Counted from the stretch's first letter, positions 9,010 to 40,353 are shown. The stretch is DNA of 40,512 nt from Candidatus Staskawiczbacteria bacterium (GCA_903928565.1 CAIYRH010000013.1:1-40512); one strand, 5' to 3'. Numbers and translations are program-made. Notes: generated from the sequence alone by a model not told the origin.

Positions 9010-10968
9010 TTAGTACATGTTTACAGAAGGTGTTCTGTAATCTGTTAATCCCCAGTCTTGGCTGGCTGTTACTCCTCCTACGCTCCAGTCAATTTCATAG
9101 ACTTCGAACCATACATATCCGCTGTTTGTGCCTCTTGAAATAGAAGCGTTAACAGTGACTGTTGCTGTTGTTCCGTCTGGTGAAGTGTCTGTATTAGGTG
9201 AAACTGTAACATCTTCTGCTATTGTTCCAAGAGTTGATCCTGAAGCATAACAAGCTGTGCTGTTACAAGCTTTAACTTTTACAGTTGCTGTTGCAAGTTT
9301 TGTCAAAGCGGCGCCATCTCCTTTAGCGTTAAAGGTGATTGTACCTGAGGCATTACTTGCTGTTGGAGTTGTAGCGTTGTAAGAATATGCAGATGTTAAT
9401 GGTGAAGCAAGTGTTAATACAGCTGCTTTACCGTTATACAAATACATTTCTTTTCCTGTGATTGCAGATCCTGTTGCTGCTGTTGATGTCAAATTTGGCT
9501 TATTGTATAAAATACCATAAGTTGCATCTGTTGGGTCAGCAATAGAGAAGATAACTCCTTTTCCATTGTCTGATGTTGCCAATACAGCAAGGTCAGCCTT
9601 TACTGTCAATGTCTTTGTAGCGTCTTGTGGGACATTGATTGTAAGGTTTGTGAAATGTGCCTTTGCGGCAGTTAATGACAATGAACCCAATAATGTGTTG
9701 CCATCATACAATTTTACAGCATTTACAGCTGCGATACCTGCTGCATCTCCTGTAGCTGTAACAGTTACATCAGTTATTACTGAAGCTCCTGTTGTTGACT
9801 TTGTATCAAAGACCAACATTGGAACGTCTGTTGTTCCGTTTGTTGAATCAATTTTTACTGAAGCTGCTACTGGTGTGCTTGTGTTTGCTGTAGCTGCTAA
9901 TGTTGAAGTGTTTACTGTTGCGTATGCTACAGTGTATTGTTTGTAGTTAGCTGTAGGAATTCCGGATGAAAGACTTGCGTCTAAACCAGCTGATCTGTTT
10001 ACTCCTGAACCATCTGTTGCACCAATAGCATCTGTAGTTCCATACAAGGCAACTTTTAATACTCTTGATGTTTCTAATGATGGAGCGAAATCAGCGTTGA
10101 TTGTCAACGTTCTTGTTGTGTTTCCAGGAACTCTAAAGCTGAATCCTGACAATATTACATAGTACGAGCTACCATCTTTGATAACTGTAGTTGTGTTTAC
10201 TGGGTATGTACCAATTTTTGTTGATCCATCGTAAACATAAAGTGCTTGTACTGTTGTTGCTGGGTGTTCAACAGCTGAGTTCTTTGTTGCTGCCAACTGA
10301 ACTTTTGCGCTGTTAACTACCATGTCAGAACCAATGGCTTTGACGTCTACTCCCAATACTGGGACGTTTGTTGTAGTTGTTACATTTGCATTTGATGCTG
10401 GTGTAGCAGCTAATTCAGGGATTGAAAGGAATCCGATTCCTCCAACTGGTGTATTATTTGCACCTGTTGTGCAGTTGCTGGCAAGTGTCATGCCATTTGG
10501 GCAAAGACCTGTTGATCCAGATCCTGATCCTGCTCCTGCGCCTGTTGATCCACCCATAGCCAATGTTAAAGCGGCTATTGTTCTTGGGCCAACACTACCT
10601 GTGGCTGTAATGCCATGTGCTGTTTGGAATGTTACAACATGGGCCTTTGTATTTGGACCATATGTTCCAACGACTGTGCTTCCAACTATTTGTTGTAAGC
10701 AGCTTACGTCTGAACCTGTGTTACCTACGTATAGGTTTCTTGTGAAAGTTACTCCTACGCATGCACCTGCTCCAGTTGTTCCGGAAGTGCCTTGTAAGCT
10801 TGTTAATTGACTTGTTAATCCGCTGATTAATGTTGTCAAATCTTGTAAGTTACAAGTTGCTGTATTTGTTAAGCTGCATCCGGCTGTTAAGGCCATAGCA
10901 GAAGGAGCAACTACTGCAACCATGGCCAAAGCCAATACGGTTGTTATAATTGTTTTTGAAATACTCAT
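9010..10968 (-). CDS. Secreted S-layer-like surface protein with peptidoglycan-binding-like domain
   Basis: Signal peptide; FTRNLYVGNTGSDVSCLQ...GTYGPNTKAHVVTFQ..HGI..TGSVGPRTIAAL (PG_binding_1-like); Thr/Ser/Ala-rich beta-sandwich body; strong A/T-ending codon bias. Confidence 0.75.
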   Translation of the reverse strand: MSISKTIITTVLALAMVAVVAPSAMALTAGCSLTNTATCNLQDLTTLISGLTSQLTSLQGTSGTTGAGACVGVTFTRNLYVGNTGSDVSCLQQIVGSTVVGTYGPNTKAHVVTFQTAHGITATGSVGPRTIAALTLAMGGSTGAGAGSGSGSTGLCPNGMTLASNCTTGANNTPVGGIGFLSIPELAATPASNANVTTTTNVPVLGVDVKAIGSDMVVNSAKVQLAATKNSAVEHPATTVQALYVYDGSTKIGTYPVNTTTVIKDGSSYYVILSGFSFRVPGNTTRTLTINADFAPSLETSRVLKVALYGTTDAIGATDGSGVNRSAGLDASLSSGIPTANYKQYTVAYATVNTSTLAATANTSTPVAASVKIDSTNGTTDVPMLVFDTKSTTGASVITDVTVTATGDAAGIAAVNAVKLYDGNTLLGSLSLTAAKAHFTNLTINVPQDATKTLTVKADLAVLATSDNGKGVIFSIADPTDATYGILYNKPNLTSTAATGSAITGKEMYLYNGKAAVLTLASPLTSAYSYNATTPTASNASGTITFNAKGDGAALTKLATATVKVKACNSTACYASGSTLGTIAEDVTVSPNTDTSPDGTTATVTVNASISRGTNSGYVWFEVYEIDWSVGGVTASQDWGLTDYRTPSVNMY

Positions 10969-33441: not shown

Positions 33442-33611
33442 GCGAGGCAATGAGTTTTCTAAGCGAAGGCAACAAACTTTTTGTAGACCCAGGTCCACTT
33501 GCCTGAAAAGGCAAAGGGGGTTACCTGCATCGGAAAAAAGTTTGTTGCCGAGTGCAAAACACTGCCGAGCGATAGAAAAAGGTTGTTGCCGAGCACAAAA
33601 CACTGCCGAGC
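33442..33611 (+). other. Structured intergenic element (nested inverted repeats plus a 41-bp-period duplication)
   Basis: GGCAACAAACTTTTT (33468-33482) / AAAAAGTTTGTTGCC (33535-33549) enclosing CAGGT..TTGCCT-GAAA-AGGCAA..ACCTG; direct repeats at 33542-33570 and 33583-33611. Confidence 0.7.
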
Positions 33612-33618
33612 AAAAAAA

Positions 33619-34323
33619 CTATCGAAGTTTACAGTCCTTAAAATATGGAGAAATTTCTTTTACAATATCTTCTAAAAATTCTTCTTTAAAAGGTTTTATT
33701 TTTTCAAATTCCGGATCAATTGTTTTTTCTGCTCTGAAATTCTGCAAATAATATTTAACATCTGGCCCACCTATCCACTTAGCAATTTTTAACAAATCTT
33801 GCTTATCGTGAATTGTATCTACAACCGTTGTTCTAAATTCCCAATCAAGTTTTCCTTGCTTTAGAAATTCTACGCTTTCTTCAATTTGAGCAAGGGTAAT
33901 GCCCTCTATCATTAAATTTTTGTAAGCCGGGTTATCTTGCGCGGTCTTTATATCCATTGCCACATAATCTACCAGTCGTGCCTGCACCAATTCTTTTAAC
34001 ATTTTTGGGTTAGAGCCATTGGTATCTAATTTAACAAAAAAACCCAAATGCTTCATTTTTTCTATAAATTTTGGCAAATCTTTATTTATTGTTGGCTCGC
34101 CCCCGCAAATTACCACGCCTTCCAACATTCCCTGACGGCTTTTTAAAAAATTAAAAAATTCTTCTTCGGCCATTCTTGGTTGTTTGGCAATTTTTAACGG
34201 CAAAACCAGCTCTGCCGAATAACACCACGGGCACCTAAAATTGCACCCAGCCAAAAAAACCACGCAGGCAATCTTGCCCGGGTAGTCAATTAAAGTTGTT
34301 TTTTGTAATCCAGCTATTATCAT
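33619..34323 (-). CDS. nrdG: Anaerobic ribonucleoside-triphosphate reductase activating protein
   Basis: LIDYPGKIACVVF.AGCNFRCPWC, ICGGEPT, KLDTNGS, DYVAMDIK, EFRTT; in the nrdD neighbourhood. Confidence 0.92.
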   Translation of the reverse strand: MIIAGLQKTTLIDYPGKIACVVFLAGCNFRCPWCYSAELVLPLKIAKQPRMAEEEFFNFLKSRQGMLEGVVICGGEPTINKDLPKFIEKMKHLGFFVKLDTNGSNPKMLKELVQARLVDYVAMDIKTAQDNPAYKNLMIEGITLAQIEESVEFLKQGKLDWEFRTTVVDTIHDKQDLLKIAKWIGGPDVKYYLQNFRAEKTIDPEFEKIKPFKEEFLEDIVKEISPYFKDCKLR

Positions 34324-34332
34324 ATATTTATT

Positions 34333-36042
34333 TTAAGCTACTTCACTATTGTAGCACGATTCGCAATAAACAATTTCTGGCCTGTCGGGCGCGTAACTAG
34401 TTTCAAATTCATTAGTACATCCTTCTTTCATGCATTGGCGGTGAAACAAGTGAAATTTGTTCCTTTGCAAAATTCTCTCTGCATAACGGCATTCAACACA
34501 TAACCTGGGCAAGGGCAATTCTTCTTTTCTTAAAAATTCTAATTCTGGTTTTATAATACGGTAAGCCTTTTTACATTTATCACATGCAATTAATTTTGAA
34601 ATAATAGTATCTTCAGCGTCTATAATTGAATTTGGTAAATCACTTGCATTTATATTCACTTCATATTCTGTTTTTTCTACGTTGTCCCAGCTAAATCCTT
34701 GCTCTGACGCTTGTTCTCGCGTTAAAGGAAAATATTCATTTACTACAGAAGTATTATATTCAAATGGAGAATGCTCTATTGGAAAAAATTCGCCATATTT
34801 GTATACTCTTCCCTTTTTATCAATATAGGGCAACATATTCATATGTTCAATAATTTTCTTTACCAGTTCGTAATAAACGGTTTCAGAATATTGTTTATTA
34901 AAAATACAATATTTTTTATTTATTAAACCAAAACAACCAAAACAGTCAGAACTATTTTTCATAAACATGCAATATGCTAAATTGCTATTCTCTGGCCAAC
35001 ATTCCACGCAAAACTTAGAATTAGACAATCCATAGCCACATGTCGTATTTTCGTAGCAAAGCTCATTAGGAGAGCCCCACACAGATATGTCCATAGAATC
35101 CTTTGACCCGGGGACTGTATGATTTTGGCAGTAACGAAGATTGTCGCCTTCATAAACAAGATATCCCATATAGATATTGCGTGAATGAGAAATATATTCT
35201 CCCAAGACGTTAGAGTTGTTAGTGCCCTGTATATATTTTACCGGCGCCTTAAGCCAAAACTCGTGAGATTTTTTCTTTACATCCTGGCACCCGCTCCACG
35301 TTTGTAATGAAAATAATTTAACTTTTTCCTCATATTCTTTTTTAGAATAAGGAACATTAAAAATGTGGTGCGATTTGTTTCGCAAATTAACGCATCCAAA
35401 ACAGTCTACGCATCCTTTACAATTTTTAGAAAATAAAACATTTGTGCAGTCATTACACTGAGTTGAAAAATGCGTTCGGTAACAATTCATTGACCAAAAT
35501 AATTCATATGACCGTTCGCACTCAGTTATGCTTGTGGAATCAAAACACTCCCTGCAATGAAAAGATGCGTTACAATAAGCACTATTTTCCATGTGACTTG
35601 TATTAAAAATTAGGTACGAATCTTTCGCATAGTCTGAATTTGCAATAAATTCCGATCTTAAATTACCAACGTCACCCGAAGTTCCCCAATGAGGCACAGT
35701 TAAAGAAAGCTCATGAAACTGCTCAAAAAATGGCTTTGAAAAGTTGTAATCAACTCCATATAGCATGGCATCCCAATCATCTTCACGCCATTCGTCGTCA
35801 CTATAAACAGGAATTTTAGATTGCTTAGAATATAATGAAAATATTTTCTTGCCCGTCTTTAAACTAATATTAAAAAATGCTTTGCGTTCGTTTCTGTAAG
35901 ACATTCTTCTTTGAAACCTACATTTCCAACAAAATGTTGGGGCGGGAACTTTCATTTTTTCGTAAAACGCAAAATCATCGGGCTCAATTACAAAGTCCTG
36001 TTTACAATTTTGGCAAACTTTTGTTTCACTTAAATGTTCCAT
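34333..36042 (-). CDS. Cys-rich Zn-ribbon / beta-solenoid-like protein, paralog 1
   Basis: CxxC pairs at both ends, Cys/Ser/Asn-rich short repeats, CFGCVNLRNK, YKYGEFFP, FETSYAPDRPEIVYCESCY. Confidence 0.85.
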   Translation of the reverse strand: MEHLSETKVCQNCKQDFVIEPDDFAFYEKMKVPAPTFCWKCRFQRRMSYRNERKAFFNISLKTGKKIFSLYSKQSKIPVYSDDEWREDDWDAMLYGVDYNFSKPFFEQFHELSLTVPHWGTSGDVGNLRSEFIANSDYAKDSYLIFNTSHMENSAYCNASFHCRECFDSTSITECERSYELFWSMNCYRTHFSTQCNDCTNVLFSKNCKGCVDCFGCVNLRNKSHHIFNVPYSKKEYEEKVKLFSLQTWSGCQDVKKKSHEFWLKAPVKYIQGTNNSNVLGEYISHSRNIYMGYLVYEGDNLRYCQNHTVPGSKDSMDISVWGSPNELCYENTTCGYGLSNSKFCVECWPENSNLAYCMFMKNSSDCFGCFGLINKKYCIFNKQYSETVYYELVKKIIEHMNMLPYIDKKGRVYKYGEFFPIEHSPFEYNTSVVNEYFPLTREQASEQGFSWDNVEKTEYEVNINASDLPNSIIDAEDTIISKLIACDKCKKAYRIIKPELEFLRKEELPLPRLCVECRYAERILQRNKFHLFHRQCMKEGCTNEFETSYAPDRPEIVYCESCYNSEVA

Positions 36043-36067
36043 GTTATTTGTACTGTCATGCGTACTG

Positions 36068-36092
36068 TCAGATTAACATTATGTTAACCTGG
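36068..36092. promoter_or_regulatory. Degenerate copy of the CAGGTTA/TAACCTG inverted-repeat site
   Basis: TCAGATTA-N9-TAACCTGG, 25 nt upstream of the paralog 1 ATG, the same spacing as for paralog 2. Confidence 0.7.
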
Positions 36093-36100
36093 ATAGGTTT

Positions 36101-37828
36101 TTATGCTACTTCACTATTGTAGCACGTTTCGCAATAAACAATTTCTGGCCTGTCGGGCGCGTAGCTAGTTTCAAATTCGTTCGTGCACCCTTCTTTCATG
36201 CATTTTCTATGCCAAAGTCTAATGGGATTACGCCAAGCAAATCTCGCATAATGCCTGCAATTTGGGCAGATTTTAGGCAACGGAATATTAAGTTTTTTAT
36301 AAAATTGCAGTTCCTGGCTAGTAATTTTAAACGCACCGGCGCATTCGTGGACGCATTCCTTATTATGGCGACAACTAATAACTTCTTTTATAATACCCTC
36401 AGCTACATATAAAATGCTGTCTGGGATATCTTTACTGTCAATCGTTGTGCTAAAATTTTTATCTTCAGGTTCTCTCCAAATAAGTCCCGTTTTTTCAACT
36501 TGTTCCCTTAAAAGAGGAAAATTTTCATATGCAAAAGATTCATTATAGGCTGTAGGGCTCATTTCGGCCGGAAAAAATTCTCCATATTTATATACTAGCC
36601 CATTTTTATCTGTATAAGGCATATCATTCATATGTTGAATGATTTTTGGCACCAATGCTTCGTATTCCTCTTTGGTGTATTGCTTATTAAAAATGCAATA
36701 TTGTTTATTCCTAAGGCTAATGCACCCAAATAAATTTGAAGAATTTTGTCCACAAAATAAACAGTACTTCAAATTTGAAACAGATGAATAACAAGACCAA
36801 CAAAAAGCAAGATTATAGGCCCCTTTTCCTACAACTAATGATTCGTAAATCAATTCGGCCGTGTCTCCGAAGTTGCTGTAATCGTAACAATCTTTTGACG
36901 GTATATTACTTAGACTTTGACAGTATTTTACATTTTCTGCTCCGCTAGCTCTCCAACAATTTATCGCATTTTTAGAATTGGAAATATAGTCCCCAGAAAC
37001 TTTTGTGTTATGTCGTCCATGAATAAATTTGTTTGGAAATTTTATCCAATGATTAATAACCTGCTCGCGAATATTATTTATACTTTGAGCCGAGTCTAAT
37101 CTAAGTTCTTTAATTTTCGTTGCATATTCTTCTTTTGAATATGGTTTATTAAAAATATAATAAGATTTATTTTTTAAATTAATACTGCCAAAACAATTAT
37201 TGCAACCAACACAATTTTTACAAAAAACTACAGCATTGCAACCTTCACAATCTATAGAATATAACGTTTTATAACACTTGGTAATGCTAACACAATCGTA
37301 GCAAAGCTCTGAATCAAAAAAGATATGGCAATCAAAAATGTCTTTAGAATTAACGCCAGAAATTGAATGGGCAGAATTTTCAACATATGATACAACATGA
37401 CTAAGATAACAATCTTTAGGTTCTGTGGCATTATTGCAAAAGTCACTTCGTATAGGACTAATAAGCGACCGAGACATTATTGGCACTTGATAAAATAACT
37501 CTCTAAATTGCTCAAAGAATGGGCGGGAAAAATCGTAATCTATACCATAGGCCATTGGATCCCACGAATCGGAGTACCATTCTGACGTTTCTAAAATTTT
37601 GGCCATAGAATCTTCATGAAAAGCGGAAAATATTTCTTTCCCATGTATGTCTTTTTTTCTAAAAAGTTTCCATTCATTTCTCCAAGACCAGCGCCTTTGC
37701 ATTCTGCAATTTGGGCAAAAAGTTGGTGCGGGCACCGTCATTTTTTTGTAAAACGCAAAATCATCGGGCTCAATTACGAAGTCCTGTTTACAATTTTGGC
37801 AAACTTTTGTTTCACTTAAATGTTCCAT
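36101..37828 (-). CDS. Cys-rich Zn-ribbon / beta-solenoid-like protein, paralog 2
   Basis: Same architecture as paralog 1; the first 27 aa are identical and the last ~33 aa nearly identical. Confidence 0.85.
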   Translation of the reverse strand: MEHLSETKVCQNCKQDFVIEPDDFAFYKKMTVPAPTFCPNCRMQRRWSWRNEWKLFRKKDIHGKEIFSAFHEDSMAKILETSEWYSDSWDPMAYGIDYDFSRPFFEQFRELFYQVPIMSRSLISPIRSDFCNNATEPKDCYLSHVVSYVENSAHSISGVNSKDIFDCHIFFDSELCYDCVSITKCYKTLYSIDCEGCNAVVFCKNCVGCNNCFGSINLKNKSYYIFNKPYSKEEYATKIKELRLDSAQSINNIREQVINHWIKFPNKFIHGRHNTKVSGDYISNSKNAINCWRASGAENVKYCQSLSNIPSKDCYDYSNFGDTAELIYESLVVGKGAYNLAFCWSCYSSVSNLKYCLFCGQNSSNLFGCISLRNKQYCIFNKQYTKEEYEALVPKIIQHMNDMPYTDKNGLVYKYGEFFPAEMSPTAYNESFAYENFPLLREQVEKTGLIWREPEDKNFSTTIDSKDIPDSILYVAEGIIKEVISCRHNKECVHECAGAFKITSQELQFYKKLNIPLPKICPNCRHYARFAWRNPIRLWHRKCMKEGCTNEFETSYAPDRPEIVYCETCYNSEVA

Positions 37829-37853
37829 GTTATTTGTACTGTCATGTGTACTG

Positions 37854-37878
37854 TCAGGTTACCCTACGATAACCTGAG
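37854..37878. repeat. 25-bp palindromic direct repeat, copy 1
   Basis: TCAGGTTA-CCCTACGA-TAACCTGA-G, identical to 38093-38117. Confidence 0.95.
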
Positions 37879-37894
37879 CTTTTTGATACCTTTT

Positions 37895-38086
37895 TTATTT
37901 TTGTAAATCGGCTATCAACAATTTTATGTCAACATCTTGTTTGAAAATAATATAATCTCGGCCCATTTTACGTGCCTTAATATTCCCCCGCCAAATTCTT
38001 TTAAGCACGGAGACCTTGCTTATTTCCAGAACTTCTGCCAACTCGGTTGTTGTATAAAAATCTTTTTCTGTTATTATTTTTGACAT
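37895..38086 (-). CDS. Excisionase/MerR-like HTH protein (HTH_17 type)
   Basis: FYTTTELAEVLEISKVSVLKRIWRGNIKARKMGRDYII. Confidence 0.88.
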   Translation of the reverse strand: MSKIITEKDFYTTTELAEVLEISKVSVLKRIWRGNIKARKMGRDYIIFKQDVDIKLLIADLQK

Positions 38087-38092
38087 TTCGTT

Positions 38093-38117
38093 TCAGGTTA
38101 CCCTACGATAACCTGAG
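38093..38117. repeat. 25-bp palindromic direct repeat, copy 2
   Basis: Identical to copy 1; 6 nt upstream of the HTH ATG and downstream of a TATAAT at 38137-38142 (minus). Confidence 0.95.
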
Positions 38118-38144
38118 AGATTTTATCTACGGTTTGATTATACT

Positions 38145-38175
38145 AAAAAACCACCCTGAATTAAAGGGCGGTTTT
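38145..38175 (-). terminator. Intrinsic terminator after nrdD
   Basis: AAAACCGCCCT-TTAATTC-AGGGTGGTTTTTT on the minus strand. Confidence 0.8.
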
Positions 38176-38181
38176 AAATTT

Positions 38182-40353
38182 TTATGCCGCTACTTTGTCC
38201 TCTATTTTTTCAATTGCTGCATTTACCTTCTCTTCTGGGAATGCAAACTCTTTTCGCTCTTCAAATTCTTGTTTTTTACCCTTGTGCCATTGCTGAACCG
38301 GGCGGATATAGCCCACCACCCTTGAATACACTTCACAGGGCTGTTTTATGGTGCACTGAGGGCATTCAAAGTGTTCGCCAGAGATATAACCGTGAGTTGG
38401 GCAAATTGAGAATGTTGGCGTTAAAGTAATATATGGCAAACTGTAATTTTCACAGATTTTTTTAACCAAGGCTTTTGCCATATTGGGGTCGGAAACTTTT
38501 TCTCCTAAAAATACGTGCAAAACTGTTCCTCCTGTATATTTTGTTTGTAACTCGTTTTGCAGTTCTAAAGCTTCAAAAATGTCATCTGTAAACCCAACTG
38601 GCAATTGGCTTGAATTAGTATAATAAGGAACTTCTTTTGTGCCCGAAGTAACAATTTCAGGGTATTTTTCTCTGTCAGCGCGTGCTTGCCTGTAACTTGT
38701 GCCTTCACCAGGAGTTGCTTCCAAATTGTATAAATTCCCGGTTTCTTCTTGGAATTGAACTATTTTATCACGCATGAAATCCAAAACTTCAAGTGCAAAT
38801 TTCTTTCCTTTGGGTGTAGTAATATCTTCTTCCAAAAAGTTTATTAAAGATTCGTTCATGCCCATAATTCCAATAGTTGAGAAATGATTTCCAAAATAAG
38901 TGTTTCTCATTTTTTTCATTTCTTCCAAATAATGCCTTGAATATGGGTAAAGCCCTTTTTCCATGTAGTTGTCCAAAGCTTTTCTTTTAATTTCCAAACT
39001 TTCTTTTGCCAATTCCATTAATTTTGTTAAACGTTCAAAATATTCTGTTTTTGTTTTTGAAGTGTATCCAATTCTTGGCAAATTTATAGTTACCACACCA
39101 ATTGACCCTGTTTTTGGAGAAGACCCAAACAATCCCCCACCTCTTTTATATAATTCTCTGTTGTCTAGTCTTAGTCTGCAACACATTGACCTGGCGTCGT
39201 CCGGACTCATATCTGACTGAATAAAATTTGAAAAATAATTAATTCCATACTTTGCCGTTGCTTCCCACATAGATAATAAATTTGGGTTGTCCCATTCAAA
39301 ATCTTTGGTTATTGAAACTGTTGGAATTGGAAAAGTAAACGGCCTGCCTGAAGCGTCTCCTTCCATTATGCCTTCGTAAAAAGCCCTAATAAACATATCC
39401 ATTTCAGGTTGAAAATCTCCGTAAGTTTCATTTTGAGGTTCGCCTCCAATAATGACCGGTTGTTTTGACAAAAATCCGGGAGCTTTAATGTCTAAAGAAA
39501 CATTCAAAAATGGAGTTTGGAAACCAACACGAGTTGGCACCATGCAATTATATAAAAATTCTTGCATAGCTTGTTTTACTTGCGAGTAATCTAACTTGTC
39601 ATATCTAATAAATGGCGCCAAAAGAGTGTCAAAATTTGAAACAGCATTTGCTCCGGCAGTTTCACCCTGCAAAGTAAACAAAACGTTTATTAATTGACCC
39701 AAAGCGGTTCTAAAGTGTTTTGGAGGCCTGCATTCTATTTTCCCAGAAACGCCACCAAATCCTTTTACTAAAAAGTCATACAAATCCCAACCAGCACAAT
39801 AAGGCGCCAATAATTCTAGGTTGTGAATGTGAAAATCTTCACTTAAAGCAGCGTCTCTAATTTCTTTTGGATAAATTTTATTTAACCAATACTTTTTTGA
39901 AATATATGAGCCTACATATTGGTTCAAACCTTGCAAAGAAAAAGTCATATTGGCATTTTCTTTTACCTGCCAATCTATTTCTTTTAAATAACTGTCCACT
40001 TTTTCTGAAGAGTCATCAACCGCTTTTGTTGCCTCACGAATTGCCCTGCGTTGCTCGCGGTACAAAACATAAGCTTTGGCAGTTTCTACTAAGCCCTCCA
40101 ACATTAGAGCTTCTTCAACAATATTTTGGATTTGTTCTATAGTTGGTATTTCGCCCTGTTTAAACCGTCGATTCATTAAAGCAACAACTTTGTCAGAGAC
40201 TCTCTTAGATTCTGGACCATTTCCTTGGTCGGTTGCAACAACGGCTTTATGAACAGCTTCGGCGATCTTTTCTTGTTCAAAATCAACGACTCTGCCGTCT
40301 CTTTTTCTAACTTTCTCAATATGATTTACTGTTTTTTTAATTTCTTCTGACAT
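38182..40353 (-). CDS. nrdD: Class III (anaerobic) ribonucleoside-triphosphate reductase with ATP cone
   Basis: VRKRDG ATP cone, FHIHNL, PYCAGW, RSMCCRL, LEATPGEG, ICPTHG...CPQC, YSRVVGYIRPV glycyl-radical motif. Confidence 0.96.
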   Translation of the reverse strand: MSEEIKKTVNHIEKVRKRDGRVVDFEQEKIAEAVHKAVVATDQGNGPESKRVSDKVVALMNRRFKQGEIPTIEQIQNIVEEALMLEGLVETAKAYVLYREQRRAIREATKAVDDSSEKVDSYLKEIDWQVKENANMTFSLQGLNQYVGSYISKKYWLNKIYPKEIRDAALSEDFHIHNLELLAPYCAGWDLYDFLVKGFGGVSGKIECRPPKHFRTALGQLINVLFTLQGETAGANAVSNFDTLLAPFIRYDKLDYSQVKQAMQEFLYNCMVPTRVGFQTPFLNVSLDIKAPGFLSKQPVIIGGEPQNETYGDFQPEMDMFIRAFYEGIMEGDASGRPFTFPIPTVSITKDFEWDNPNLLSMWEATAKYGINYFSNFIQSDMSPDDARSMCCRLRLDNRELYKRGGGLFGSSPKTGSIGVVTINLPRIGYTSKTKTEYFERLTKLMELAKESLEIKRKALDNYMEKGLYPYSRHYLEEMKKMRNTYFGNHFSTIGIMGMNESLINFLEEDITTPKGKKFALEVLDFMRDKIVQFQEETGNLYNLEATPGEGTSYRQARADREKYPEIVTSGTKEVPYYTNSSQLPVGFTDDIFEALELQNELQTKYTGGTVLHVFLGEKVSDPNMAKALVKKICENYSLPYITLTPTFSICPTHGYISGEHFECPQCTIKQPCEVYSRVVGYIRPVQQWHKGKKQEFEERKEFAFPEEKVNAAIEKIEDKVAA

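Follow-up and report, generated by a model that had tools for sequence, protein, structure and literature searches.

The window analyzed here is a 40,512-nt stretch of DNA from Candidatus Staskawiczbacteria bacterium (CAIYRH010000013.1), in which two tandem genes for cysteine-rich proteins, here called A and B, are located between nrdD and nrdG. The genome, referred to as G000, is a metagenome bin of 718 kb in 18 contigs, which is 95% complete and of which the window is contig 13; its two nearest relatives are referred to as G003 and G005, and coordinates given without a contig number are positions in the whole window. All genes of the locus lie on the minus strand, in the order nrdD, a gene of the HTH_17 family of helix-turn-helix (HTH) proteins, B, A, and nrdG. 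The data indicate that A and B are probably two old paralogs with stable cores and converted ends, that A was relocated to this place, and that the palindromes in front of the genes are predicted sites of HTH_17 proteins. The features of the locus are the following:

38182 to 40353, minus strand: nrdD (anaerobic ribonucleotide reductase), the upstream border of the insert (Pfam NRDD, 634 bits, and ATP-cone).
38094 to 38115, no strand assigned: palindrome 1, CAGGTTACCCTACGATAACCTG, 7 nt before the start codon of the HTH gene, an exact copy of 37855-37876.
37895 to 38086, minus strand: HTH_17/excisionase-family winged-helix protein of 63 aa with the recognition helix SKVSVLKRIWRGN (PF12728, TIGR01764).
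37855 to 37876, no strand assigned: palindrome 2, identical to palindrome 1, 26 nt before the start of B.
37748 to 37857, minus strand: shared 5′ module, B copy, consisting of the 26-nt leader ACAGTACACATGACAGTACAAATAAC, the last 3 nt of the palindrome, and codons 1-27 (alignment with the A copy).
36101 to 37828, minus strand: gene B, 575 aa, predicted zinc-ribbon-capped double beta-solenoid family member, resident of the locus (orthologs at the same position in G005 and G003; structural model).
36101 to 36204, minus strand: shared 3′ block, B copy, last 34 codons and stop (alignment with 34333-34436).
36069 to 36091, no strand assigned: palindrome 3, CAGATTAACATTATGTTAACCTG on the plus strand, AAC class, imperfect at one position, 26 nt before the start of A.
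35962 to 36071, minus strand: shared 5′ module, A copy (alignment with the B copy).
34333 to 36042, minus strand: gene A, 569 aa, family member relocated here (orthologs in other arrays of G005 and G003).
34333 to 34436, minus strand: shared 3′ block, A copy (alignment and synonymous distance).
33619 to 34323, minus strand: nrdG (radical-SAM activase), the downstream border of the insert (Radical_SAM, 71.7 bits).

After nrdD, a terminator-like hairpin and a TATAAT can be read from the sequence. The sequence of palindromes 1 and 2 occurs in two exact copies, as compared with 0.01 expected by chance, while the slightly imperfect site before A (CAGGTTAACATAATGTTAATCTG) belongs to a different class. 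The initial annotation of this DNA placed a CAGGTTA/TAACCTG-type site exactly 25 nt before each gene. A site is indeed present before each of them, but the exact palindrome precedes only the HTH gene and B, and the start codons of A and B were measured to lie 26 nt from their sites and that of the HTH gene 7 nt from its own.

The near-identity of the two ends of A and B was confirmed. The 5′ blocks (35962-36071 and 37748-37857) differ by two mismatches in 110 nt, at positions 35992 and 36061, and the 3′ blocks (34333-34436 and 36101-36204) by seven mismatches in 104 nt; the longest identical run common to the ends of both genes is 68 nt. The interiors had been described as strongly diverged apart from short motifs. 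The three quoted motifs are present in the alignment and the silent sites are saturated, but the proteins are nonetheless 49% identical overall (282 of 577 aligned positions). The synonymous distance (dS), calculated by the Nei-Gojobori method, is not uniform along the genes, and drops at both ends: codons 1-27 give 0.083 and the last 35 codons 0.50, while the region between them is saturated, with a proportion of synonymous differences (pS) of 0.75-0.79. Consistently, the same codon is used at 26 of 27 identical residues in codons 1-30 and at 19 of 21 in the last window, as compared with 170 of 273 in the whole alignment.

The comparison with the orthologs of both genes in G005 and G003 showed that the shared leader and first codons are absent from both ortholog sets in these two genomes. 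The orthologs of B start with MEQEVK(S/T)C behind an unrelated leader, and those of A start with MEYKSENKNC or MQDKREIKNC behind other leaders. The last 105 nt are 92% identical between A and B, as compared with 79%-81% between A and its orthologs and 72%-77% between B and its orthologs, while in the preceding 105 nt the identity is 47% between A and B and 76%-82% in the ortholog pairs. The pS over the last 35 codons is 0.365 between A and B versus 0.68-0.95 for orthologs with nearly the same residues, and the comparison of the A-type with the B-type gene within G005 and G003 shows saturation over these codons (pS 0.96). Among the 153 pairs formed by the 18 paralogs present in G000, A and B are the sole pair with an identity of at least 0.85 over the last 35 codons (0.90; median 0.64). 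In the tree of the cores, A groups with its G005 and G003 orthologs (support 100/100) and B with another G000 copy, C7:70222, and the two B orthologs (100/100), while a clade of A and B is rejected by the approximately unbiased (AU) test with p 7e-5. In the 3′ tree, on the other hand, A and B are sisters (94/64), and the AU test rejects the orthologous groupings on the 3′ block (p 0.031 and 0.0125). The trees were calculated without the untranslated leader, which is itself unrelated to the leaders of the orthologs. Because neither ortholog set carries the shared ends, both ends were homogenized in this lineage, and the ends of A and B have been copied between the two genes by ectopic gene conversion. 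The statement of the initial annotation that the ends are more alike than a simple old duplication would leave them is thus borne out, and protein constraint does not give this likeness either, as the orthologs lack the shared leader and first codons and have lower 3′ identity.

The similar ends could alternatively be explained by strong purifying selection on the zinc-ribbon ends, by codon bias, or by an RNA element, without any exchange of DNA. Conservation among the 18 paralogs is highest in the N-terminal ribbon and in the last 35 residues, with a mean share of the commonest residue of 0.74 and 0.71, respectively, versus 0.42-0.59 elsewhere, and therefore a part of the end similarity is plain protein constraint. 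However, the silent sites differ between orthologs whose residues are nearly the same, and the first nine residues together with the untranslated leader are wholly unlike those of the orthologs. An RNA element is also not indicated by the Rfam search, which gave no matches at E up to 1 within 33500-38400. Hence, we consider it extremely improbable that selection without DNA exchange produced these ends.

It is similarly hard to believe that the assembler joined or collapsed paralogs across the conserved ends, even though the genome is a metagenome bin of 18 contigs and the repeated blocks interrupt the matching public contigs, none of which spans a whole 110-nt block. These contigs come from four DNA runs of a single study, and no RNA run was listed. 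The copies differ at two and seven positions, and the 68-nt identical run is shorter than ordinary reads. Moreover, short public contigs with 0-1 differences bridge 35965-36157, which covers the 3′ end of B, the site, and the 5′ end of A; others bridge 33901-34389 (nrdG and the 3′ end of A) and 37756-37949 (the 5′ end of B and the HTH gene). These contigs are not independent of the assembly, because they possibly come from the source sample of the bin itself.

The conversion of the ends resembles concerted evolution of the type reported for tufA/tufB, in that short homogenized tracts with sharp borders are found between diverged copies, and the phylogeny of these tracts conflicts with that of the rest of the gene. 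It is different from that case, because only the ends, of about 110 and 105 nt, are converted, between copies which are 49% identical, and because the 5′ tract takes in an untranslated leader, which has spread to other loci and to a non-family gene. Birth-and-death tandem families offer a further parallel in their short homogenized tracts and in the variation of copy number and position among relatives. The window thus documents a dated case of gene conversion restricted to the ends and of relocation of a gene within the family.

The initial annotation interpreted the homogenized ends as handles used to swap, add, or delete variable solenoid cores of a receptor or effector. Such a system would resemble pilE/pilS of Neisseria, vlsE of Borrelia, and plasmid shufflons, in which conserved segments flank variable ones in multiple copies and serve as recombination substrates. 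The homogenization of the ends is in agreement with such programmed diversification, and so are the variation in family copy number among 26 congeners, from 0 to 22, and the fact that one slot holds non-orthologous members in different genomes. The cores, however, argue against it. When they were compared in 40-codon windows, the closest sequence to the core of A was an ortholog of A in all windows from one shared end to the other (with one tie, at 0.75, between C10:30050 and the G003 ortholog). For the core of B it was a member of the clade of B, which comprises C7:70222 and the two B orthologs, in 23 of 26 core windows. Of the other three windows, two had the X gene of G005 as best match, by 0.01 over a clade member, and in the third C10:35208 tied with C7:70222 at 0.60. 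A was never nearest to the core of B, nor B to the core of A. The dN/dS ratio of the cores is about 0.07-0.09 (0.103/1.43 for A and 0.213/2.25 for B, each against G005), which indicates purifying selection.

The machinery that would be expected of such a system was not found in G000 either. Apart from a fragment of 28 aa, no bank of partial, silent cassettes exists among the copies; the recombinases comprise one Xer-like tyrosine recombinase on another contig and no serine recombinase or invertase; and the reverse transcriptase expected of a diversity-generating retroelement (PF00078) gave no matches. No signal peptide was evident by eye in a protein whose ends are zinc ribbons, and a variable surface receptor therefore appears unlikely. 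In contrast to pilE/pilS, vlsE, and shufflons, the family is thus without silent partial cassettes, mosaic cores, or a dedicated recombinase, and its cores are under purifying selection. In addition, G005 and G003 carry orthologs of both A and B, and the presence of the same two orthologous cores in relatives is what the initial annotation itself had named as evidence against its reading. Since the cores are intact orthologs, under purifying selection and never mosaic, programmed core shuffling is not supported; it is largely refuted, and we regard it as very unlikely. What stands of the initial interpretation is that the ends are recombination substrates and that the family moves. On present evidence, the conserved ends and the palindromes are not parts of a machine for programmed diversification, and this over-reading is corrected here. 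Ordinary mechanisms are at work on a family that is unstudied and heavily expanded, and the new testable pieces are a specificity code of the HTH proteins and a spreading leader module. Joints of one end to the other core were also searched for in public Logan contigs. The candidates had sides of 20-30 nt at 90% likeness, one of them skipping from 34325 to 36195, and they were discounted because such joints usually stem from paralogs or other organisms.

To see how the two genes came to stand together, the nrdG neighborhoods of 16 relatives were compared. In 13 of the 16 loci nrdD and nrdG are adjacent, in two they are separated by an HTH gene and one family gene, and in one by an unrelated 2.1-kb insert. 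The two relatives with a family gene have the same B core there: in G005 and G003 the order is nrdD, a methyltransferase gene, the HTH gene, one family gene, and nrdG, and the family gene is the ortholog of B (70%-71% identity). The orthologs of A are found in other arrays, at G005:C1:633665-635371 in a three-gene array (83%) and at G003:C4:51464-53161 in slot 4 of a four-gene array (78%), while no other G000 paralog is more than 50% identical to A. Hence, B is the resident of the locus and A is a newcomer in the lineage of G000.

Three further observations were made in these loci. In the G003 locus (L012, reverse strand, ~9220-9290), the stop codon of the B ortholog is followed by about 50 GC-rich nucleotides and then by a second copy of the last codons (..CYQQEVA, stop), which looks like a small insertion duplicating or displacing the 3′ tip of the gene. 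The 2.1-kb insert between nrdG and nrdD (L019, G009:C24:29200-39500) has no match to the family or the HTH gene. In another relative (L022, G010:C10:9800-13173) nrdD is interrupted, with residues 439-552 and 551-723 matching 1.6 kb apart, which suggests an intron, an intein-type element, or a mobile insert.

The places from which A could have come were also compared. The contig-10 array of G000 is syntenic with the G003 array that carries the A ortholog, with flanking genes 74%-93% identical. Slots 1 and 2 correspond in the two arrays (78% and 75%), and slots 3 and 4 hold other members (43% and 50%); the ortholog of the contig-10 slot-4 occupant sits in yet another array of G005. The G005 locus of the A ortholog corresponds to a stretch of contig 8 in G000, where the orthologs of the two flanking genes are about 1.45 kb apart, and this stretch contains no ortholog-level match to the genes of the G005 array or to the adjacent 543-aa gene. 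Similar turnover is observed between murG and gltX. Among 26 congener loci, murG abuts gltX in 18, a family gene is present in three (G000, G005, and G006), the context is different in three, and two are unreadable. The family genes of G005 and G006 are not orthologs of that of G000: no G000 paralog is more than 46% identical to the G005/G006 gene, and the G000 occupant, C15:57630, is outside their five best matches. Thus, family members change loci between congeners, since the locus of A differs in G000, G005, and G003 and the occupants of the murG-gltX slot are non-orthologous. For the copy C10:33487 no ortholog was found at E 1e-150 or better in four relatives, an empty result which proves nothing.

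These data are consistent with a history in which an accessory insert, composed of the HTH gene and B, split the usually adjacent nrdD and nrdG in a small subclade. A then moved in behind B from another array, most likely via homologous recombination in the family-wide 3′ zinc-ribbon block. A single crossover in this conserved block would yield the present arrangement, for example if a circle excised from an array integrated into the 3′ block of B. The 9 nt past the stop codon of A resemble the sequence after the B ortholog in G005, and the spacer between B and A, with its AAC-class palindrome, resembles the spacer before the A ortholog in G003. Ectopic gene conversion followed at both ends, earlier in the last 105 nt (dS 0.5) and very recently in the leader and codons 1-27 (dS 0.08). 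The conserved ends accordingly act as recombination substrates as a by-product of their homology, with the cores stably inherited under purifying selection.

The palindromes were analyzed together with the HTH_17 proteins. The HTH protein of the locus passes the cut-offs of both PF12728 (33.1 bits, cut-off 27) and TIGR01764 (31.7 bits, cut-off 28.8). Its model (predicted local distance difference test score, pLDDT, of 79.5) has its best Foldseek matches in BldC, RacA, HiNmlR (a MerR-type DNA-binding domain), Pukovnik Xis, and RdfS. In G000 there are 20 strict palindromes, AGGTT-R-N-C-(4-5)-G-N-Y-AACCT, and three degenerate ones. All 23 are intergenic in a crude call of open reading frames (ORFs), apart from overlaps with short or over-extended ORFs that were judged spurious. 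Six strict sites are located no more than 120 nt upstream of family genes, two only downstream of one, and seven elsewhere. G000 has exactly four HTH_17 paralogs, and each of them (4/4) has a palindrome of its own class about 8-33 nt upstream of its start. B stands behind the class of site that belongs to the local HTH gene, a hybrid with one ATC half and one ACC half, and A stands behind the AAC class, which is also found before the contig-7 HTH gene C7:74611.

The same association was observed in a wider sample of 80 HTH loci from public genomes, in which a site within 150 nt upstream was counted. Such a site was found for 24 of 33 short and 13 of 30 mid-length HTH forms, but for none of the 13 fusion and four multi-domain forms. 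The fusion architecture, in which the HTH is joined to a conserved C-terminal region of ~180 aa to give 238-243 aa in total, was seen in 13 of the 80 loci (L051, L053, L056, L057, L060, L062, L063, L066-L070, and L073). Loci with an HTH gene keep the same site at the same position before that gene across phyla. The class of the half-site maps one-to-one on the motif of the recognition helix: KVS..WRGN corresponds to ACC (3/3), KQS..GRGN to GCC (4/4), K/RQS..H/W to GTC (7/7), RVA..NRG to ATC (3/3), and R(I/V)(S/A) to AAC or AAT (19 loci). The half-site specificity of this small HTH family can thus be read from its sequence in five classes, and therefore the regulon of an uncultured lineage becomes testable in vitro.

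Sites and HTH genes occur together in 13 of the 26 congeners and are both absent from 11; of the remaining two, one carries only a single site and the other shows only weak HTH hits (Fisher p 2.7e-5, calculated on related genomes, which are not independent). In six congeners there are 3-14 family copies but no palindrome and no HTH gene, while one has seven palindromes and three HTH genes but no family gene. Hence, the palindromes track the HTH_17 genes and not the cysteine-rich family. As judged from these patterns, the CAGGTTR..YAACCTG palindromes are most likely putative binding sites of small paralogous Xis/BldC-like HTH_17 regulators, and not a shuffling signal. The HTH_17 proteins would probably be autoregulated repressors that also control the genes behind each site, and the sites may have been recruited in front of some family genes.

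The likeness to known proteins is consistent with a role in DNA binding. BldC (PDB 6AMA), RacA (5I44), Pukovnik Xis (4J2N), and RdfS (8DGL) have the same fold by Foldseek, which for BldC gave E 0.029, template modeling scores of 0.62/0.70, and probability 1.0. They are also of similar size (58-70 aa), and are small MerR-like winged helices without an effector domain, but the sequence identity of the HTH protein to them is only about 18%-24%. The BldC protein of Streptomyces reportedly binds direct repeats head-to-tail. In contrast, a symmetric dimer is implied by the sites described here, because they are palindromes of 20-23 bp whose half-site is specific to the class. At the RNA level, each of the three palindromes of the locus folds into a 10-bp hairpin (z -2.2, -1.8, and -4.8), because the sites are palindromes. 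Terminator-like calls at the palindromes fall on the antisense strand, and in the imperfect sites, compared by eye as RNA hairpins or DNA sites, there are about five G-U versus three to four A-C combinations in the sense strand.

Several observations weigh against the interpretation of the locus as a whole. The topology tests of the 5′ block are weak (p 0.19 and 0.048 for 81 columns), and the groups for the topology tests were named once the trees had been seen. The crossover route suggested for the arrival of A is drawn from the similarity of flanks and one informative codon. G005, which is 98% complete, has 17 palindromes of four classes but one HTH_17 gene, and nine of its sites are therefore without a cognate HTH class. 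At murG-gltX the palindrome sits downstream of the family gene, which is an odd place for an operator of that gene. No promoter could be placed relative to the sites, and a consensus scan gave 25 promoter-like sites versus 18.3 +/- 4.5 in shuffled sequences. Finally, two indels are bounded exactly by palindromes. The methyltransferase gene of G005, absent in G000, lies between two of them, and the flanks of the single site in G000 match its outer flanks. At murG-gltX the order is site-family gene-site-HTH-site in G006 and family gene-site in G005, so that here an HTH gene has been gained or lost between sites; the TAG stop codon of the family gene overlaps the site in both genomes.

These indels bring in the main rival explanation, according to which the palindromes are recombination sites of integrase-poor, integron-like cassettes, with the Xis-like HTH proteins as site-binding accessory factors, and genes are gained, lost, or reordered there. 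It could also account for the many HTH genes with a site on either side, for the match of the HTH fold to the true excisionases Pukovnik Xis and RdfS, and for the surplus of sites in G005 and the site that follows the family gene at murG-gltX. The likeness to integron cassettes with attC sites, including the integrase-less arrays known as clusters of attC sites lacking integron integrases (CALIN), consists in palindromes which head or tail genes and in these two site-bounded indels. However, the six of 26 congeners with family copies but neither sites nor HTH genes mean that family arrays and their turnover need no sites, and the congener with sites and HTH genes but no family gene points the same way. 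A, whose stop codon is followed after 9 nt by nrdG, has no palindrome on its downstream side, and no site marks the empty murG-gltX slot in the 18 of 26 loci where murG abuts gltX. The sole tyrosine recombinase of G000 is Xer-like (XerD, 222.7 bits), is encoded off the contig, and scores 104.1 bits with the integron integrase model TIGR02249, as compared with a cut-off of 265. The sites are near-perfect palindromes without the attC core GTTRRRY, reading GTTAAC, GTTGCC, GTTGTC, GTTATC, and GTTACC, and without the asymmetry of extrahelical bases. Unlike attC sites, they co-occur and covary with an HTH family and are missing from genomes with large family arrays, and their position before HTH genes is constant across phyla. 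Since short identical palindromes are good substrates for accidental deletion, the site-bounded indels need no dedicated machine. Taken together, these data make the cassette explanation rather unlikely, and the reading of the palindromes as HTH_17 binding sites is preferred.

A more speculative idea, to which we give slightly less credence than to the cassette explanation, is the following. The family could be an interchangeable client or effector repertoire moved among a few "expression slots", each headed by a palindrome and read by a different Xis-like HTH protein, with recombination at the zinc-ribbon ends and palindromes setting which member stands behind which regulator. If this were true, ultra-small symbiotic bacteria would possess a system in which cassettes are exchanged without an integrase and expression is coded by regulators, and A and B would be a freshly rewired pair with the same new leader and two different operator classes.

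The leader shared by A and B is not limited to this locus. Positions -34 to +85 are at least 83% identical in all 30-nt windows among A, B, C10:33487, and C10:44261, with the exception of the window at +28 between B and C10:33487, where the identity is 77%. The palindromes that precede the 5′ module differ, and the similarity begins precisely at the palindrome border. Among the 153 paralog pairs, 12 share the leader and eight codons at 0.80 or above, and they form two module classes, with six pairs in the set of A, B, and the contig-10 copies and six in the contig-18 array; the cores of the leader-sharing pairs are 46%-54% identical. Directly after the palindrome the 12-nt unit ACAGTACACGTG is repeated two to three times (37829-37854, 36043-36068, C10:33458, C10:44232, C14:2694, and C18:64750-68440). 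The doubled motif ACAGTACACGTG-ACAGTA is found at nine places in G000, one of them before a dnaX-like gene, and once each in two of 25 congeners, which makes it a lineage-specific leader module. The version of the unit in A and B is CA/GCATG, and a short upstream ORF, which is out of frame, starts there.

A second leader module is present in the four-gene array of contig 18 (C18:63128-70226), where it is 94%-100% identical across all four genes. This module contains an additional hairpin, the arms of which are 16 nt long, and its TATAAT ends 6 nt before the ATG, which suggests that the transcripts of these genes could be leaderless.

The family to which A and B belong is represented in G000 by 18 full-length copies, of which 17 are intact with start codons and one has an internal TAA, besides the 28-aa fragment. 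The copies total 30,477 nt, that is 4.2% of the genome, and eight of them are on contig 10 and four on contig 18. At least 7,975 of 8,000 scored candidates from the protein database are relatives, and the named ones are all annotated as "hypothetical protein" and come from Staskawiczbacteria and other Patescibacteria. A and B are anciently diverged, non-sister members of a very large, Patescibacteria-only family. Because it takes up 4.2% of a reduced genome and has thousands of "hypothetical protein" relatives, its biology likely matters for candidate-phyla bacteria. Searches of the literature, which covered titles and the openings of abstracts, gave nothing on the cysteine-rich family or the HTH sites.

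Structure prediction for B from 80 sequences gave an AlphaFold model with a pLDDT of 86.5 and a predicted template modeling score of 0.89, in which both ends are zinc ribbons and the middle consists, at lower confidence, of two strand-rich, cysteine-lined repeats. As modeled, the family members are predicted to be cytoplasmic proteins of ~570 aa, in which two cysteine-lined beta-solenoids are enclosed by a zinc ribbon on either side. The Foldseek comparison of this model with the PDB gave no match that reached E 0.001; the rows obtained were weak left-handed beta-helices with E values from 0.09 upwards. In the PDB profile search with B, no E value was below 0.15. Neither Pfam nor NCBIfam has a model that exceeds its cut-off on A or B or one that spans the 570-aa architecture. 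The nearest models are the "probable treble clef" zinc fingers zf_Tbcl and zf_Tbcl_2: the N-terminal CxxC..CxxC ribbon of B is close to PF13451 (zf_Tbcl; 23.2 bits for B and 17.7 for A, below the cut-off of 24), and the C-terminal ribbons are faintly like PF23477 (zf_Tbcl_2; 11.3 and 13.5 bits, below the cut-off of 27). Unlike members of these curated families, A and B remain under the cut-offs, and they have no PDB relative by sequence or fold.

Some other copies of the family have features of their own. The array on contig 10 (L114, G000:C10:27900-46300) is flanked and split by two genes for TrwB/VirD4-like ATPases, with a CutA1 gene between, and the first of these ATPases itself contains zf_Tbcl_2 (PF23477) at 42.9 bits, over the cut-off. 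The lone copy C7:70222 (C7:70213-71904) is the closest relative of B in the core tree (99/91). Because it is closer to B than the positional orthologs of G005 and G003 are, the two may be a lineage-specific duplicate pair.

Just 3′ of nrdG, at 33535-33616, there are two tandem 41-nt copies which are 85% alike. At least six other contigs also contain the first 18 nt of these copies (AAAAAGTTTGTTGCCGAG), of which there is one inverted copy 50 nt away (33468-33482). The sequence looks like one more small repeat dispersed in this genome.

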